From positions 109,064-173,063 of the IMG/VR virus record IMGVR_UViG_3300031998_000001: 64,000 nt of DNA; one strand, written 5' to 3'. Shown in pieces: positions 3,779-58,974 of this stretch (position 1 is the first letter of the stretch; each line of letters begins with the position of its first letter). Made by a program: the position numbers and the translations under genes. Below the pieces are notes generated by a model that saw nothing but the letters and a program-made list of their open reading frames with translations, was not told the origin of the DNA and made no database searches. The stretch is from a virus. Taxonomy: Duplodnaviria > Heunggongvirae > Uroviricota > Caudoviricetes.

Positions 3779-5038
3779 TTAAAAGATTTTCTCGATTTCC
3801 TCTATGTATTTTCTACCGAACAGCGTATCGACAATCTTCCTTGCGAACGCCTCCTGCCTCTTGTCAACATCTGGTCTGTCGAGTTCTTTGTCTGAAATGT
3901 AATAGTTGATGCAAACTTCGACATCCCCGTCCAGATGCTTCCAATTTTCTTCGTCCATATATTGAACTGCAAACTCCACATTGCCTGCTCTGGTTCTTTC
4001 TTTTGAATACGGCTCAAACCTGCCCCTCTTCCAAACCGTGCCCCACGAGCATTCGTATCCGTTGCGCTTGAAATCCTCTTCATATGTATCTTCCATATCA
4101 TCTTGCCCTATTACCTCTACATCAAAATACTCACTCATAATTTTTCCAACGTAGATGCACATATCGTAAGGGTGTACACAAAACGGATAGCATACACCGT
4201 TGTCTTTGTATTCGTCATATAGGGGGGAACGCCCTCTATCTAAATTTGGTAGTGCGCGATACCCAAATTGCTTCAAAGCATTGTTAAATTTTCTTATGGT
4301 ATTTTCACCTGAAAATGATTTGTATTTTTCAACACCGTCCCAGTCGGTATTGTAGAAGTCAAAGTGCTTTTCCCACAACGGATAGAGGAAAGCGTCGATG
4401 TCTATGTGTATTGTTATTTTGTTTTCCTTTTCGGAGTGCGGGTCATACACCCGTTCAACATCCCAGTCGTTGACGATGCCTTGCTTGCGGTATTTGTCTG
4501 GCGCATTTGTAATGCCCCGTTCCAGTTTGTCCGACATAATCTTCCTGACATACCTGCTTCCGTCCCCATTGTAGAGTTTACCGTCCTTGCCGAGCAGGAG
4601 TTTGCTCCCGTCAACAACCACGCTTGCTATGATTGTGACACTCGACCTTGTGTCTGGTGTCTTGATTAGGTACGGGGTGAGGGGTGTCAAGTCAACCACC
4701 TCTACGCCTTTCGGCAATATAGCACCGTCAAGCATATCGCTCTGTACTTTGGCGCACGCCTCAAAGTCCTTTACACCAGAATATGTTACTGTGTGCTCGT
4801 GGTCTTTTCTGTCTTTCGATACAGCCTTTATACCAGCGTTCTTGTCCTTTGTGATTTCCTCGAACCAGATGTCGCTTATCAGGTTTCCGTTCCTGTCGGT
4901 CAGGTTGTAAAGCCCGTTCCTGTTCTTCACAATAAAATATGTCGAATCAAATATGTCGAACTCTTCATAGTCCTTGAACATATTTGGTCTCACCGCCATT
5001 TCATTGATAAATTCTTCAACTTTCAATATGCGTATCAT
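3779..5038 (-). CDS. hypothetical protein (about 419 aa), opposite orientation to flanking genes
   Basis: Long minus-strand ORF. The track start at 5044 is TTG; the first ATG is at 5038. No motif recognised. Confidence 0.55.
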   Translation of the reverse strand: MIRILKVEEFINEMAVRPNMFKDYEEFDIFDSTYFIVKNRNGLYNLTDRNGNLISDIWFEEITKDKNAGIKAVSKDRKDHEHTVTYSGVKDFEACAKVQSDMLDGAILPKGVEVVDLTPLTPYLIKTPDTRSSVTIIASVVVDGSKLLLGKDGKLYNGDGSRYVRKIMSDKLERGITNAPDKYRKQGIVNDWDVERVYDPHSEKENKITIHIDIDAFLYPLWEKHFDFYNTDWDGVEKYKSFSGENTIRKFNNALKQFGYRALPNLDRGRSPLYDEYKDNGVCYPFCVHPYDMCIYVGKIMSEYFDVEVIGQDDMEDTYEEDFKRNGYECSWGTVWKRGRFEPYSKERTRAGNVEFAVQYMDEENWKHLDGDVEVCINYYISDKELDRPDVDKRQEAFARKIVDTLFGRKYIEEIEKIF

Positions 5039-5126: not shown

Positions 5127-7508
5127 ATGGGAGAGAAAGAACAGGCTAACACGACCGTCTGGTCGTCGAAGTCGGTGGCGAAATATACCGATGACATAGA
5201 CTCTGGCGTTGAGCGCAAGGGAGAGTCCCCGTTCTTTATGGGCAACAAGAAGTATCGCAAGGCAAATCTATTGTTTGAATATACGCAGGAGGAGGTTGCC
5301 GAACTGCTCAAGTGCAAGAATGATGTCCGTTACTTCGCCAACCACTATGCGTGGGTCAAGAACGCTGCCGAGGGTGGTGCCGTCGCGCAGATAACATTGA
5401 GGGACTATCAGGAGGATGTCCTCAATGTCATTGATGAAAACAGGTTCTCAATTATTCTCGCAAGTAGGCAGTCGGGGAAATGCTCGATACATTCGACTAT
5501 AATTGATACGGAGAACGGCGAGAAACGGGCGATTGGCGAATTGTTCGATGACGGTGATACATTCCTGTCAAGGGTTAAACGCTTCTTATATAAGTTGCAC
5601 GGCATACGCTTCATCAAAAATATCACAGGGCATTTGATACAGTTCATTGAACACATCGAGAACAGGGGCAAGGCGGTTTATGACGGCAAGTTCATTGATG
5701 AGCAGGACATATCGCTTATGGTGAAAAGTGATACGGGGTTCGTGCCCGCCACGAAGGTATATAAGACAAAGCCGTACAATGTGTACGAGGTCTTTTTTAC
5801 GGACGGCACTAAAATAGAGTGTGCGGACACCCATATATTCTTTACAGGTGAACTTGCGGAGGTATTCTGCAAGGACTTGAAGTCAGGCGACCGCTTGTTC
5901 GGGGACGGGTGCATAAAGACCGTAAAGAGTGTCAGACGACATAACTACAAGTTCTGTATGTACGATGTGTCAGTTGACGATGACACGCACAGGTACTATA
6001 CCAACGGGGTGCTGTCCCATAACACTATCAGTTCTTCGATATACTTGGCTTGGTATCTCCTGTTCAACTATGACAAGAATGTCTTTCTTACCGCGAACAA
6101 GGAGCGCACCGCCCGCGATGTGCTGTCGAAAGTTCAGGAGATAATAGAGAATGTGCCGTTCTTTATGAAACCGGGCATATTGAAGTGGGGTGCGCTCGAC
6201 CTGAAGTTCGACAACGGTTGCAAGTGCATTGCCGAATCGACAACGCCCCGCTCTGGTATCGGCTTCACAATCAACCTGCTCTACTTGGACGAGTTCGCCC
6301 ACGTCGAGAAAGGCATCATAGACGAGTTCTACTCCAACATTATGCCTACCGTAACATCACTCCCAGACAGCAAGATTATCATCACTTCGACACCGAACGG
6401 AATGAACCTGTTTTATGAAATCTACTCGGCTGCGGAGAAGGGGCTTAACGGCTTCAAGCCGTACAGGATAGACTGGTGGCAAGTTCCCGACTGGGACAAG
6501 AACCAGCGCAAGTGGGTGAAGCGAGACGAGGAGTGGATGGAAAGGACGATAGCGATACTCGGAGGCGAGGACAGGGAACTCGGTCTTGAACGCTTCGGTG
6601 CGCAGTACGGCAACTCGTTCTTGGCTACGGGCAACCTGCTCATATCCCCGAACGGCTTGAAGCGTATGGAGGAGAGCAAGGTGCAGTTCGTTCAGGACGA
6701 GAGCGACATATTCGACAGGTACGAGATAGAGGAGGCGAAGTACCTGCGGTGGCATCCAGATATTGATGTGCCGTCGCTGAAAACCAACACGAAGGACTTT
6801 TTCCTCATAAGCGTTGACCTCTCGGAAGGCAACGGGGGCGACTTCCTCGTGTCGGACATTTTCCGCGCTGGGGTTATGTCCCGCGAGGATGTTGAGGCAT
6901 TGCACACCCCGAACAAGATTTCCGACTATGTGTGCTTGGAGCAGGTCGGGGTATGGGCGCACAACTATATGTCCCTGAAGAACTTTGCGAAGTTCCTCTA
7001 TGTGCTGACGCACAAGTTGATGAACCCAGAGAATTTGAAGATAATCCTCGAATGGAACGCATTTGGCGGGGAGGTTATGTCGGAACTCGGATATGTGTTC
7101 GGGGACAGGAACGACTTCTCGAAGGATGTCATACTCAAATTCAAGCACAGCATAGACAGCGACATATACAAGTACGGCTTGAAGGTCAATGCCGAGAACA
7201 AGAAGATACACTGCCAGATGATGCGCACCAACACGGCTTGCGGGCGTATGATAGTCCACGACATACCGACCATAAAGGAGTTCAACCTGTTCGGGCTACG
7301 GAAGAACAGTTATGCCGCCATAACGGGGCACGACGACTTGGCGATGACCTGCGTGAACGCAAACGCCTTCTTCGAGACGAGGGCTTTCGGGTGGATTTCC
7401 GACAATGTGATTGCGGAGAGCGGGCGTATGCAGGAACTGCTCGATGCGATGAAGGTCAACGGTGACCCCGATGTCGAGTACGGGAGCATATATTCGGCGG
7501 CATTCTGA
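5127..7508 (+). CDS. terL: terminase large subunit, intein-containing
   Basis: Walker A ASRQSGK|T is interrupted by an intein. Walker B-like LLYLDEFAHV is present. The C-terminal nuclease-like half is present. The size fits once the intein is removed. Confidence 0.85.
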   Translation: MGEKEQANTTVWSSKSVAKYTDDIDSGVERKGESPFFMGNKKYRKANLLFEYTQEEVAELLKCKNDVRYFANHYAWVKNAAEGGAVAQITLRDYQEDVLNVIDENRFSIILASRQSGKCSIHSTIIDTENGEKRAIGELFDDGDTFLSRVKRFLYKLHGIRFIKNITGHLIQFIEHIENRGKAVYDGKFIDEQDISLMVKSDTGFVPATKVYKTKPYNVYEVFFTDGTKIECADTHIFFTGELAEVFCKDLKSGDRLFGDGCIKTVKSVRRHNYKFCMYDVSVDDDTHRYYTNGVLSHNTISSSIYLAWYLLFNYDKNVFLTANKERTARDVLSKVQEIIENVPFFMKPGILKWGALDLKFDNGCKCIAESTTPRSGIGFTINLLYLDEFAHVEKGIIDEFYSNIMPTVTSLPDSKIIITSTPNGMNLFYEIYSAAEKGLNGFKPYRIDWWQVPDWDKNQRKWVKRDEEWMERTIAILGGEDRELGLERFGAQYGNSFLATGNLLISPNGLKRMEESKVQFVQDESDIFDRYEIEEAKYLRWHPDIDVPSLKTNTKDFFLISVDLSEGNGGDFLVSDIFRAGVMSREDVEALHTPNKISDYVCLEQVGVWAHNYMSLKNFAKFLYVLTHKLMNPENLKIILEWNAFGGEVMSELGYVFGDRNDFSKDVILKFKHSIDSDIYKYGLKVNAENKKIHCQMMRTNTACGRMIVHDIPTIKEFNLFGLRKNSYAAITGHDDLAMTCVNANAFFETRAFGWISDNVIAESGRMQELLDAMKVNGDPDVEYGSIYSAAF
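5481..6023 (+). other. mini-intein (181 aa, Hint domain, no homing-endonuclease domain) inside terL P-loop
   Basis: Starts with Cys immediately after the Walker A lysine (CSIHSTIIDT, block A). Block B is ECADTHIFFT. Blocks F/G are MYDVSVDDDTHRYYTNGVLSHN followed by the extein Thr. Confidence 0.8.
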
Positions 7509-7740: not shown

Positions 7741-7796
7741 TCTGAAATCATTATTTATTAACTATATATTAGTTATGGAAAGAAAAACATAACACT
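7735..7796 (+). promoter_or_regulatory. conserved promoter/5'-UTR cassette, copy a
   Basis: TTTTCTGAAAT-N-CTATATATTAG...GGAAAG..ACA ending at the ATG of 7797. See the cassette finding for consensus. Confidence 0.55.
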
Positions 7797-47818: not shown

Positions 47819-47894
47819 TTTTCTGCTACTCGCAGAATTTACACCTGCATTATTATAGTCCCTACCTTTGCGATGTAACCAAAGGCAACGGACT

Positions 47895-48827
47895 ATGAAC
47901 CAGTTTGAATTTTTTGAGAAGTTTCCTACGGAGGACGACGCAATCGACTTCATCGTGGAAACGAAGTACAGGGACGGATATGTCTGCCCCAAGTGCGGAT
48001 GCGTGCATCACAAAATCTATCATCAGAAGTACAACCGCAGAAATCTTTATTGCAACAACTGCAAGAGCGAGTTCTCGGCATTGTCTGGAACTATCTTTGA
48101 ACACACCCATCTTGACCTGCGTATGTGGCTCTTTGCAATAAACTTGGTGCTTATTGCACGCAAGGGCATAAGCGGATTGCAGTTGCAAAGGGAACTCGGT
48201 ATGGTGTCCTACAAGGGTGCTTTCCGTATGCTCAAACTGATAAGGCAAGCGATGGGGACGGAAGCCCATAAAGATACATTCGAGGCAATCGTTGAAATAG
48301 ATGAAACCTATGTCGGTGGGAAGCCACGCAAGGAAAACAGACACAAGGGCAAGGTGTCCAAAAAGTCAAAGCGAGGACGAGGAACAAGCAAGACACCAGT
48401 CGTGGGCGTGGTCGAACGCAGTAGCGGGCGCATATACGCCAAAGTTGCACTGCCGAACAAGGAAGGCAAGAAGTTAAGCGGAAAGCAACTGCTGTCCATA
48501 CTGGACGAGGTGTGCAAGTCGAACACTACCGTTATGACCGACCAGTTGAGCAGTTACGGGATTCTGGACGGCAAGACCGACAGGAAGTACATACACATAA
48601 AGATTGACCATAGTATGACTTATTCGCTTGGGGACGGCAAGCATACGAACACCATCGAATCCTGCTGGGCGATATTGAAGCGCGGTGTATATGGTATCTA
48701 CCACCACATATCAACAAGGCACTTGCAGGAGTATGTGGACGAGTTCTGCTACCGCCTTAACCACCGCCAGCCCGATGATGCTTGGAAGCATCTGGTCGGG
48801 CTGGGGATAGGGTGTATGGCGGTGTGA
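47895..48827 (+). CDS. IS1595-family (ISXO2-like) DDE transposase
   Basis: N-terminal transposase zinc-ribbon (FPTEDDAIDFIVETKYRDGYVCPKCGC...CNNC). DDE_Tnp_IS1595-like core (IDETYVGG...MTDQLSSY...HTNTIESCW). Confidence 0.8.
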   Translation: MNQFEFFEKFPTEDDAIDFIVETKYRDGYVCPKCGCVHHKIYHQKYNRRNLYCNNCKSEFSALSGTIFEHTHLDLRMWLFAINLVLIARKGISGLQLQRELGMVSYKGAFRMLKLIRQAMGTEAHKDTFEAIVEIDETYVGGKPRKENRHKGKVSKKSKRGRGTSKTPVVGVVERSSGRIYAKVALPNKEGKKLSGKQLLSILDEVCKSNTTVMTDQLSSYGILDGKTDRKYIHIKIDHSMTYSLGDGKHTNTIESCWAILKRGVYGIYHHISTRHLQEYVDEFCYRLNHRQPDDAWKHLVGLGIGCMAV

Positions 48828-56990: not shown

Positions 56991-57051
56991 TTTTTTCTGA
57001 AATCATTATTTATTAACTATATATTAGTGTTGAACACAAAACAAACTTACG
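56991..57051 (+). promoter_or_regulatory. conserved promoter/5'-UTR cassette, copy k
   Basis: TTTTTTCTGAAATCATTATTTATTAACTATATATTAGTGTTGAACACAAAACAAACTTACG, then ATG. Confidence 0.6.
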
Positions 57052-57726
57052 ATGAAAAGATTTATTATTATTGACGGACAGAACTATATGCAGAAGTTTG
57101 CAATATCAAAGGCACTGGCGATAGCAACGGCGATATTCGTCGTCCTTGTTGTCGCATCGGCTACTGGGGGAGTGGCGTTCGCGCTCCGCAAGGCGGAACA
57201 GGCACGCTACGAGAGGGCGATGGACGAACTCGACAGCCTGCGGGCGCAGAATGCGGAACTCGCGGGTGCGCTTTCAGCCTTCGAGGACTTGGAGAGGGAC
57301 TACAGCATAAACTCCCTCATTGGTGAACTCACCCTCCTGCACAGCACTGAAGTCCCGCAGAGGGACACCCTCGTAGCCTTCACAAAGTCGATAGGCTTGT
57401 GGTATCCCGACATCACCCTCGCCCAGTTCCGACAGGAGACGGGTATGGGCACGAACCCGCAGTCGATATACGGCAAGTCCAACAACCTTATGAATATGAA
57501 GCGGGTGTCGAAGCGTCCGACCACGCAGTGCGGGGAGTACAACGGCTACGGCACATACCACAACTGGAAACTCGCGGTCATTGATATGTACCTGTGGGAA
57601 CGCTTCGTGTTCGGCGGAGTGAAGCCGACAAAGGAGCAATACTTCGAGAAGTTGAAAGGCTTTGCGGAGGACGGGGAGTATATAAATAGGATTACAGTGT
57701 TTTCAAAGCAATATACCGATGAGTAA
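57052..57726 (+). CDS. peptidoglycan hydrolase, glucosaminidase/FlgJ-type muramidase domain with N-terminal signal-anchor
   Basis: TM helix AIATAIFVVLVVA. LAQFRQETGMGTNPQSIYGKSNNLMNMK matches the AQAxLESGWGxS...NNLFGIK glucosaminidase signature. Confidence 0.65.
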   Translation: MKRFIIIDGQNYMQKFAISKALAIATAIFVVLVVASATGGVAFALRKAEQARYERAMDELDSLRAQNAELAGALSAFEDLERDYSINSLIGELTLLHSTEVPQRDTLVAFTKSIGLWYPDITLAQFRQETGMGTNPQSIYGKSNNLMNMKRVSKRPTTQCGEYNGYGTYHNWKLAVIDMYLWERFVFGGVKPTKEQYFEKLKGFAEDGEYINRITVFSKQYTDE

Positions 57727-58414
57727 CATAATATCAAGCAACGAGCATATCCTCTTCAAGTATGTGCTCGAAAAGCCAGAATACTACGGGTACATAAAGA
57801 GGGGCTTCTTCAAGAGCAAGGAACTGGACGAACTTATGGGGCTTGCCGAAAGGCACTACGAAACCTACAAGAGCATACCGAGTTCGGCGCAGATGTGTGC
57901 GCTTGTCACGGAGAGCGAGTCGGACATACCCAGAGATGTGATAACCACGATATACTCGATTGACACGAGGGAGTATGACGGGGAGTGGATGGAGCGCACC
58001 GTTCAGGCGTGGATTCGGTGGAGGCAGTTGCAGACAGACCTCGTGAAGTCGGTGGAGATTTCAAAACTCGCGGAGGTCAACTTCGAGAATGTGGAGAGCG
58101 TCATAAACGACATAACGGGGCGCATAGCGACGGTCAACACGATAACATTCGACGAGGACGACGGGCTTGACTTCTTCGATGCGACCTCGCACAACCAGTT
58201 GCAGACCGAGAAGGTCAAGAGCGGATACTCGTATGTTGACCAGTGCCTCGGCGGTGGCTATGACAAGAAGGAACTCATATTCTATATGGGGCAGTCCAAC
58301 ATCGGAAAGTGCGTCTGCGGGGATATGAAGGTCACGGTGAGGAACAAGCGCACTGGCGAGGTCAGGACTATGCCGATAAGGGAGTTCTACGAAACGGTGT
58401 CGGCTGGAAGATAG
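57719..58414 (+). CDS. DnaB/gp4-like replicative helicase N-terminal fragment ending in a 34-aa intein N-fragment
   Basis: Helicase N-domain plus P-loop ELIFYMGQSNIGK, then CVCGDMKVTVRNKRTGEVRTMPIREFYETVSAGR, then stop. No continuation in any frame. Confidence 0.6.
   Translation: MSNIISSNEHILFKYVLEKPEYYGYIKRGFFKSKELDELMGLAERHYETYKSIPSSAQMCALVTESESDIPRDVITTIYSIDTREYDGEWMERTVQAWIRWRQLQTDLVKSVEISKLAEVNFENVESVINDITGRIATVNTITFDEDDGLDFFDATSHNQLQTEKVKSGYSYVDQCLGGGYDKKELIFYMGQSNIGKCVCGDMKVTVRNKRTGEVRTMPIREFYETVSAGR
58310..58411 (+). other. intein N-terminal fragment (candidate atypically split intein IntN)
   Basis: Cys after the Walker A lysine. Block A CVCGDMKV. The two beta strands GEVRTMPIREFY resemble the IntN of DnaB inteins (CISGDSLISLASTGKRVSIKDLL). 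Confidence 0.55.
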
Positions 58415-58638
58415 CGGGAAAGGGAAGCGTTATGAAGGTCGAGAGGATAACGGGCGGTATGATATTCGTAGGCAGGAAGAGATATGCCGAAGTCTCCGTC
58501 TCCCTGCGGGACACATCCGCAGTGCGCCTGCTTCCGAGCATAGAGGTCTGTCGCGGGCGTATCGTGCTCGCATTCGCCTGCTTCTGGCTCGCAATCGCTT
58601 TCGGCAGGAGGTATGATGCCCGAAAAAAATCCAGAAAA

Positions 58639-58698
58639 ATCTGAAATGTTCGGCAGACCACTATATATTAGTAATGTATTGGGAATAAAAACTAAAAT
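58639..58698 (+). promoter_or_regulatory. promoter cassette variant, copy l
   Basis: ATCTGAAATGTTCGGCAGACCACTATATATTAGTAATGTATTGGGAATAAAAACTAAAAT, then ATG. Confidence 0.5.
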
Positions 58699-58974
58699 AT
58701 GGCAACACTATACAAGACGGACGGGACGAAGGTTGAAGTAAGCCCCGTGAACGGAAAGGACTTCAAGTACGACGAGTTGAAGAATTTTGTCGGGGGCTAC
58801 ATCGAGATAGTCAACCTCGGCAAGAAGAAGGTGATGGTCGTGAACGAGGAGGGCAAACTTATGGGGCTTCCCGCCAACAACGAGGCGACAAGGATAATGG
58901 CTGAAATGCTCCCTATGGTACGCGACTATATTGTGGGCAACGCCCTCGTGTGCAAGACAAGTGAAATCAAATAG
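58699..58974 (+). CDS. hypothetical protein
   Basis: ORF after the cassette. Confidence 0.45.
   Translation: MATLYKTDGTKVEVSPVNGKDFKYDELKNFVGGYIEIVNLGKKKVMVVNEEGKLMGLPANNEATRIMAEMLPMVRDYIVGNALVCKTSEIK

Follow-up and report, generated by a model that had tools for sequence, protein, structure and literature searches.

A putative atypically split intein in the Walker A motif of a phage replicative helicase, with its halves encoded far apart on one contig

Naturally occurring atypically split inteins, in which a very short N-terminal fragment (IntN) pairs with a long C-terminal fragment (IntC), comprise, according to a 2026 paper, AceL TerL and GOS TerL, divided at the S2 site, and VidaL and PolB16, divided at the S1 site, with IntN of 15–37 amino acids (aa) (PMC13014065; also PMC10189870, PMC11766414). 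In the TerL type, the published length of IntN is 25–37 aa and that of IntC about 104 aa (PMC11766414, PMC13014065). Phage gp41-type helicases broken by split inteins, gp41-1 to gp41-9, have been described as ‘fractured genes’ (Dassa et al. 2009, PMC2677866). The P-loop of the DnaB family is a recognised intein insertion point, designated b (PMC4760082), and the mycobacterial P-loop intein DnaBi1 is redox-sensitive (PMC6195587). Here we analyse a window of 64,000 nucleotides (nt) from a virus of the Caudoviricetes (positions 109,064 to 173,063 of IMG/VR record IMGVR_UViG_3300031998_000001), in which the open reading frame (ORF) at 57719–58414 very probably encodes the N-terminal half of an intein-helicase that is naturally split in the atypical manner and whose halves would be joined by trans-splicing.

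In the mechanism that we propose, the window gene would supply the helicase N-domain fused to a 34-residue IntN, and the RecA-type ATPase core, preceded by a 132-residue IntC, would come from a second gene that lies 157 kb downstream of the first, on the same strand. IntN (strands 1 and 2 and helix 1) would dock into the incomplete HINT (Hedgehog/intein) fold of IntC, Cys198 would form a thioester that is attacked by Ser+1 of the C-half, and the terminal Asn132 of IntC would cyclise. The expected product is a gp41/DnaB-like replicative helicase of 507 aa with its Walker A motif restored (GQSNIGK-S), which would serve as the working replicative helicase of the phage. Because the P-loop is divided between the halves, neither half alone should be able to bind ATP.

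The fragment lengths of 34 and 132 aa fit the definition of an atypically split intein, in which IntN is short (about 15–37 aa) and IntC long (PMC13014065). An initial annotation of the window had likened the gene to AceL-TerL, and aptly so: the profile of the IntC family matches CatC, the consensus TerL atypical IntC (CatN/CatC, PDB 6dsl), with an E value of 2.7e-9 over residues 11–112 of 118, placing AceL/GOS-TerL and Cat in the same sequence family. The likeness extends to the combination of a short IntN with a long IntC and to insertion between Lys and Ser/Thr of a phage ATPase P-loop; moreover, the window's own large terminase (TerL) holds a contiguous family member at the same P-loop site. 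The present element, known from sequence alone, differs in its host, a gp41/DnaB-like helicase, in its IntC of 132 aa, in the 157 kb between its halves and in its pairing of Cys1 with Ser+1. As judged from its sequence, then, the element is a TerL-group homologue in a helicase, with uncoupled halves, of the AceL/GOS-TerL atypically split type. VidaL (PDB 6vgv), also a natural split with a very short IntN, is the best solved-structure match to the IntC family (E 3.4e-11), but its IntN has 16 aa, the division coming earlier, after strand 2 (the S1 site; PMC13014065). The inteins gp41-1 to gp41-7 occupy another insertion site, position 356 of P-SSM2 gp41 (PMC2677866), and the gp41-1 structure is canonically split. 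DnaB P-loop inteins such as DnaBi1 are contiguous and cellular, whereas the window element is split and phage-borne. Cyanobacterial DnaE resembles it as an essential replication protein trans-spliced from two distant genes (PMC2677866), but has a canonical split, in which IntC is short and IntN measures roughly 100 aa, in a different host protein of a cellular genome.

The N-terminal half of the helicase gene

The N-half ORF runs on the + strand and encodes 231 aa, ending in a TAG codon (58412–58414) that is followed seven codons on by an in-frame TGA. Residues 1–197 (57719–58309) make up the N-extein, which comprises the N-terminal domain of the helicase together with the first half of Walker A, ending GQSNIGK. 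The remaining 34 residues, C198 to R231 (58310–58411), correspond to IntN, with the Cys1 of block A, two predicted beta strands and the predicted first helix. Residues 9–197 match the PHROG family phrog_19, ‘DnaB-like replicative helicase’ (E 4.5e-11, profile positions 164–366 of 621), but the N-half fragment alone has no significant Pfam match, and megablast against a phage collection gave no match. By tblastn, the N-domain is 37% identical to the helicase of the huge phage LR756500.1 and 28–29% identical to those of Lak phages. The LR756500.1 gene is the closest uninterrupted helicase, 435 aa in length, and reads ...YCGQSGIGK-SIWLCNDAANFV... across its P-loop (GQSGIGK-SIWL). The window instead reads ...YMGQSNIGK-CVCGDMKVTVRNKRTGEVRTMPIREFYETVSAGR-stop, with the start of Walker A, GQSNIGK, at residues 190–197 and Cys198 opening the 34-aa CVCGDMKVTVRNKRTGEVRTMPIREFYETVSAGR. 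Since the LR756500.1 motif reads GQSGIGK-SIWL at this point, the break lies exactly between Lys and Ser of Walker A. Thus the gene does stop 34 residues into an intein (Cys198, 33 further residues and TAG), as the initial annotation had claimed from the letters of the window. Its description of the N-domain as ‘DnaB/gp4-like’ holds for the DnaB part, but the domain is of the T4 gp41/DnaB type and is not T7 gp4-like.

Truncation after a short intein segment is a conserved property of this family. A word-indexed search of 5.8 billion proteins gave 14 homologues of 193–239 aa, with 44–98% identity, and all 14 stop 30–41 residues after GK/C (the slash marks the extein–intein boundary). When the N-half alignment was run exhaustively with HMMER against 1.84 billion cluster representatives, it gave 895 matches, dozens of which are 50%-identity clusters of 225–260 aa that cover profile positions 1–228. 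Across the IntN tails of 15 family members, C198, V199, C200 and N209 are invariant and G201, T212, G213, I220 and F223 are nearly so. Cys1, directly after GK, is invariant in these 15 members, as it is in a set of 23 IntN sequences taken from diverse phages. Beyond the first intein helix, the tail varies freely in length across the N-half family, with proteins of 226–239 aa, and its last few residues differ in sequence as well.

No frame downstream of the stop holds intein or helicase sequence, and neither the window nor the 10 kb to each side of the gene gave a helicase C-domain by tblastn with five C-domains or by hidden Markov model (HMM) search of six-frame translations; the partner gene is absent from the window, as had been proposed. 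A gene that stops within an intein and is followed in the window by nothing helicase-like could be a decayed pseudogene, a functionless fragment of an intein-bearing helicase gene that has lost its 3′ part, and the initial annotation offered this as its alternative. We consider such decay highly improbable. The truncation point is kept in the homologues down to 44% identity and in the dozens of 50%-identity clusters, the ratio of nonsynonymous to synonymous substitution rates (dN/dS) for the N-extein is 0.10 (against L385, an 82%-identical relative), and HMM search finds no IntC remnant in the downstream spacer. An intact partner lies on the same contig, with an IntC under purifying selection (dN/dS 0.06), and both halves are also present in related genomes.

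A sequencing or assembly frameshift, likewise raised at the outset, or a recoded or read-through stop might also mask a contiguous gene. Twelve contigs, which come from independent samples of JGI, ENA and Logan, encode an identical 231-aa protein, and among those listed ENA ERZ27257204 k141_2358260 is the longest (387,452 bp); because independent samples carry the identical ORF, an assembly error is ruled out. For recoding it can be said that the window ORF ends in TAG and that a Lak helicase shows in-frame TAGs, and TAG is recoded in the related Lak megaphages. The Lak gene in question, from Prevotella phage Lak-B5 (MK250024.1, 177256–180882), contains in-frame TAG codons and encodes a helicase without an intein. 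Against recoding or read-through, TGA follows seven codons past the TAG and no downstream frame encodes intein or helicase. One 98%-identical variant (P0001; window 58412–58435) has a sense codon in place of TAG and gains just 7 residues before TGA (...GRRRERESL). Relatives terminate at the same place with TGA or TAA, and reading TAG as sense brings no special gain in ORF coverage of the window, so that reassignment of the stop codon is not indicated. The probability that a contiguous gene is hidden here is, in our judgement, close to nil.

The partner gene and the joined product

The initial annotation predicted that an IntC of about 100 aa ending in HN, followed by Ser, Thr or Cys and a RecA core, would be encoded elsewhere in the genome, and such a gene exists. 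Positions 165,114–181,395 of contig k141_2358260 are 100% identical to the window over all 16,282 nt compared, so that adding 117,395 to a window position gives the position on the contig. The N-half lies at 175,114–175,809 on the + strand of ena:ERZ27257204:k141_2358260, and an exact look-up places the IntC-helicase gene, encoding the 442-aa protein P0399, at 332,827–334,155 on the same strand, 157 kb downstream of the N-half. From the offset, the partner lies ∼151 kb past the end of the window. Linkage of the halves is also seen in cluster membership: the clusters of P0399 and of the exact window protein (P0400) share their longest contig (387,654 bp), as do those of P0290 and its N-half variant P0401 (381,204 bp).

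P0399 begins MNFAYGIQPSLHQPERKFVGKADTDEWEIMTDNGW...RCADTHIVY...NMYDIEVDDVDHRYYANGFVSHN, then SIFLCNDATTFCRMGKNVIYITCEMS..., and consists of an IntC (residues 1–132; ...HRYYANGFVSHN; ...GFVSHN), Ser133 and a DnaB_C RecA core, giving a C-extein of 310 aa. The Pfam DnaB_C match spans residues 140–352 and corresponds to profile positions 40–250 of 255, that is, from just after the P-loop. The catalytic residues are in place (CADTH66, MYD113, SH131-N132 and Ser133); H66, D113, H131 and N132 are invariant in an alignment of 14 IntC sequences, and the +1 residue is Ser or Thr in all 14. In comparison with an 84%-identical relative, dN/dS is 0.064 for IntC (118 codons) and 0.16 for the helicase core.

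The partner was reached by searching IMG/VR with an IntC-helicase alignment, retrieving the P0286 and P0290 clusters with a clade-specific profile, and passing from cluster members to the exact look-up. Other searches missed it. A DNA pattern for HN-S-x-W...G-x-N...E-M recovered 73 split helicase loci from IMG/VR, with relatives of the window phage not among them, because their C-extein opens with SIF rather than SxW. Similarly, a pattern for HN-[STC]-x4-NDAAxF missed the relatives because they carry NDAV or NDAT, and the partners were not among the matches listed for the pattern KIKQIAEDLR. The best 80 matches of a search with a helicase C-domain alignment were all unsplit helicases, and the first IntC-helicase profile search was filled by more distant family relatives from other phage contigs.

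When joined in silico, the N-extein (residues 1–197) and the C-extein form a 507-aa sequence with 42–45% identity to three uninterrupted helicases. The alignment passes through the junction without a gap (GQSNIGK/SIFLCND versus GEQNIGKSIFLAND), and the helicase motifs GK/S, VLVIDYIN, ITATQ and KIRDG are kept. The predicted junction peptide of the ligated product is ...GQSNIGKSIFLCNDA... (also ...YMGQSNIGKSIFLCNDATTF...).

The C-half is homologous in sequence to solved inteins: the IntC family profile matches VidaL (3.4e-11), gp41-1 (1.7e-9), CatC and NrdJ-1 (1.3e-6) in the PDB, where the seven best matches can be recognised as inteins from their names or context and several weaker ones carry other molecule names. 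Residue 11 of CatC aligns with position 11 of the IntC profile. The Pfam Intein_splicing family gives only a sub-threshold match to the joined sequence. Contiguous, complete mini-inteins that begin like the window tail are found at the same site in two phage helicases, L026 (621 aa; ...ESNIGK/CVCYDTHITIR...YYTNDILSHN/SIWL) and P0148 (615 aa; ...PKCGK/CVVGSEFIKIKNKNTGE...YYTSGILSHN/STWL). In an AlphaFold2 model of P0148 the intein consists of two strands, a helix (residues 223–231), a linker helix and a beta-rich domain, with block means of the predicted local distance difference test (pLDDT) of about 36–90. The last IntN residue of the window falls in the loop after the 223–231 helix, a low-confidence region of the model, and IntN ends six residues past the IREFYE segment. 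In this model the split probably follows the first helix, corresponding to the S2 site used in AceL/GOS TerL.

Several points weigh against a split intein-helicase assembled by trans-splicing. IntN is too short for a significant database match: CatN is colinear with it but at an E value of 0.35, and Pfam gives none. The AlphaFold confidence for P0148 is low to moderate over the intein, which makes the fold and the position of the split tentative. The dN/dS of IntN against one relative is a noisy 0.54, uninformative because it comes from only 28 codons. Trans-splicing itself is an inference. Finally, reading of the 387-kb contig covered ∼82 kb (the 64-kb window and the flanking loci L003 and L384), and a second, intact replicative helicase may be encoded elsewhere in the genome.

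Some of these points would also fit halves that associate through the intein fragments without splicing, to form a non-covalent helicase, or an N-half with an independent role (for example, as a primase or loader partner) that uses IntN as a docking tag. Splicing is a prediction, the IntN dN/dS is not clearly low, and a non-covalent rebuilding of the divided P-loop is conceivable in principle. We nevertheless consider either arrangement unlikely. All residues needed for the chemistry are conserved (Cys1, His in block B, Asp in block F, the terminal His-Asn pair and Ser or Thr at +1), and a Walker A loop that carries an inserted 166-residue HINT domain would hardly be expected to bind ATP. In addition, the solved family relatives VidaL, Cat and gp41-1 are reported to splice (PMC13014065). 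Joining of the two halves by trans-splicing thus stays our favoured reading of the pair.

Relatives with distant and adjacent halves

N-halves that are 44–48% identical to that of the window are found on five IMG/VR contigs of 106–413 kb, and in none of them does a helicase core lie within 10 kb. On IMG/VR contig 3300028805_000062, the N-half lies near 104 kb and the IntC-helicase within the stretch at 26–31 kb; on 3300031994_000001 (413 kb), the N-half is at ∼375.0–375.7 kb and the IntC-helicase at ∼299–300 kb. In both cases the halves are on the same strand, ∼75 kb apart, and in both the IntC of the partner ends ...HRYYVNGFLCHN and is followed by SIFLCNDAVNF.

Adjacent halves are found in other phage loci. 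Nearly all of the 73 IMG/VR loci recovered by the HN-S-x-W pattern together with helicase motifs encode a gene in which an intein C-part of 115–150 aa leads into a helicase core of ∼240 aa. In 48 of these, an N-half lies just upstream on the same strand, ending GK/C plus 31–38 residues, and the IntN tails, typically ...IKIRNKKTGEIxEIxIGDFYxxIKNK-stop, align with the window tail without gaps. The halves of the 48 loci are spaced by 1–150 nt or by roughly 0.6–2.5 kb (mostly ∼1.1 kb). In the two wider-gap loci examined, an ORF of 363–376 aa lies between the halves, with a C-terminus that is weakly, and below threshold, similar to restriction endonucleases. These intervening ORFs (L150, 1290–2420; L164, 10037–11128) end ...IIEFNGDYWHCNP...VWESD and have weak matches to REase_MTES_1575; one of them has an N-terminal C2H2 zinc finger as well. 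They are candidate free-standing homing endonucleases.

The fractured-gene layout, in which the halves are adjacent and usually enclose a free-standing homing endonuclease gene, is therefore seen in the 48 related loci, two of them with an intervening endonuclease-like ORF, but not in the window phage, whose halves lie 157 kb apart with no helicase C-domain within 10 kb of the N-half. In this phage no endonuclease gene adjoins the N-half, and none occurs in those flanks of the C-half that were covered. The window phage fits step IV, genomic uncoupling, of the model of Dassa et al. (PMC2677866).

A profile search matched 2,792 proteins at E ≤1e-10, so that the IntC-helicase family is large, with over 2,700 protein clusters; each of the best 120 is 353–400 aa long and contains DnaB_C. 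The same sequence family is also represented within the window, by a contiguous 181-aa intein in the P-loop of the large terminase (5481–6023 on the + strand, within the ORF at 5127–7508; IntC-helicase HMM E 3e-29). It lies between Lys and Thr of the P-loop (SRQSGK/CSIHST...YYTNGVLSHN/TISS), and the terminase ORF matches Pfam Terminase_6N and Intein_splicing. The terminase intein has a linker of roughly 45 residues close to the point at which its helicase counterpart is divided.

Genomic surroundings and implications

The N-half start codon is overlapped by 8 nt by an upstream gene of 224 aa (57052–57726, + strand, from the ORF list), which lies outside the helicase and has a sub-threshold Pfam Glucosaminidase match (E 1e-4). 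The order of these two genes is the same in L385, and they are probably co-transcribed. A bipartite promoter-like cassette, TTTTTCTGAAAT-N13-ACTATATATTAGTGTTG (56991–57032, + strand), precedes this two-gene unit. Its core motif occurs 10 times in the window, always on the + strand (0.06 copies expected by chance) and each time just 5′ of a start codon, with motif starts at 7761, 10383, 12499, 24071, 29667, 32540, 37349, 44288, 57016 and 58660. The aligned copies share both boxes; the cassette is followed by gaaagga and can also be given as TTTTTCTGAAAT-N13-ACTATATATTAG. On contig k141_2358260, two copies are found in L384, one of which is 23 nt 5′ of the ATG of the IntC-helicase gene (L384 4934–4978, ATG at 5001). 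This common cassette suggests that both helicase halves may belong to the same temporal class.

On the 3′ side, the initial annotation described 220 bp without helicase-like coding and then a promoter cassette and an unrelated gene. The lack of helicase signal and the cassette (58627–58676, + strand) are confirmed, and the cassette serves a DUF3846 gene (58699–58974) outside the split gene. The distance from the stop to the next ATG (58699) is, however, 284 nt, and gene callers place a 70-aa ORF there. Ending the gene at 58698, as was done initially, takes in the spacer and the cassette of the next gene, neither of which is part of the split gene. The spacer (58415–58626, 212 nt, read on the + strand) is GC-rich, non-conserved and outside the split gene, and holds most of the 70-aa ORF from the gene finders (58432–58644). 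HMM search gives no helicase or intein signal in it, Pfam and Rfam give no match, and its folding z-score is −0.13. The 70-aa ORF is absent from the relatives L385 and L011–L015. A decayed IntC, a small gene and a structured RNA were each considered for the spacer, and none is supported by HMM, Pfam, Rfam, folding or the relatives. L385 has a hairpin and then a T-run where the window has the 70-aa ORF.

Other genes were noted around the two halves. A 639-aa ClpB-like AAA+ ATPase is encoded 5′ of the IntC-helicase gene (L384 2619–4538; about 330–335 kb of k141_2358260), and a 123-aa protein with a precomputed match to Pfam Tad8 (PF25189) directly 3′ of it (L384 6333–6704); these neighbours recur in three other contigs. 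Within the window, a 319-aa ORF at 47868–48827 encodes an IS1595-family transposase (DDE_Tnp_IS1595, E 5e-33, plus a zinc ribbon), and this region looks like an insertion sequence within the phage genome.

A full-text literature search, outside which several key papers fell, turned up no description of a helicase-borne atypical split intein. We tentatively put forward a broader proposal, which we hold to be rather doubtful as a whole: that atypically split inteins in the P-loops of phage gp41-like helicases make up a very large natural family, undescribed as far as our search shows (over 2,700 protein clusters, against four natural atypical split inteins named in recent literature), with halves uncoupled by 75–157 kb under the same promoter type in giant phages whose sample names suggest the rumen, and that the Cys-Val-Cys start, invariant in the clade, could render helicase assembly redox- or metal-sensitive, as is reported of the DnaB P-loop intein of mycobacteria. 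Few natural split inteins have a short IntN, and such inteins are in demand, since a fragment of that length is accessible by chemical synthesis. The clade and its thousands of relatives offer many Cys1/Ser+1 candidates with an IntN of 31–38 residues, some of them from samples whose names suggest a warm gut habitat. For annotation, such genes are now labelled hypothetical proteins or truncated helicases.

If the two halves are indeed joined as we propose, the replicative helicase of this 387-kb phage would exist only after the ligation of two proteins encoded 157 kb apart. The locus would then be a clear example of the last step, genomic uncoupling, in the published model of split-intein evolution, and the need to ligate the halves might provide a post-translational checkpoint on phage DNA replication.

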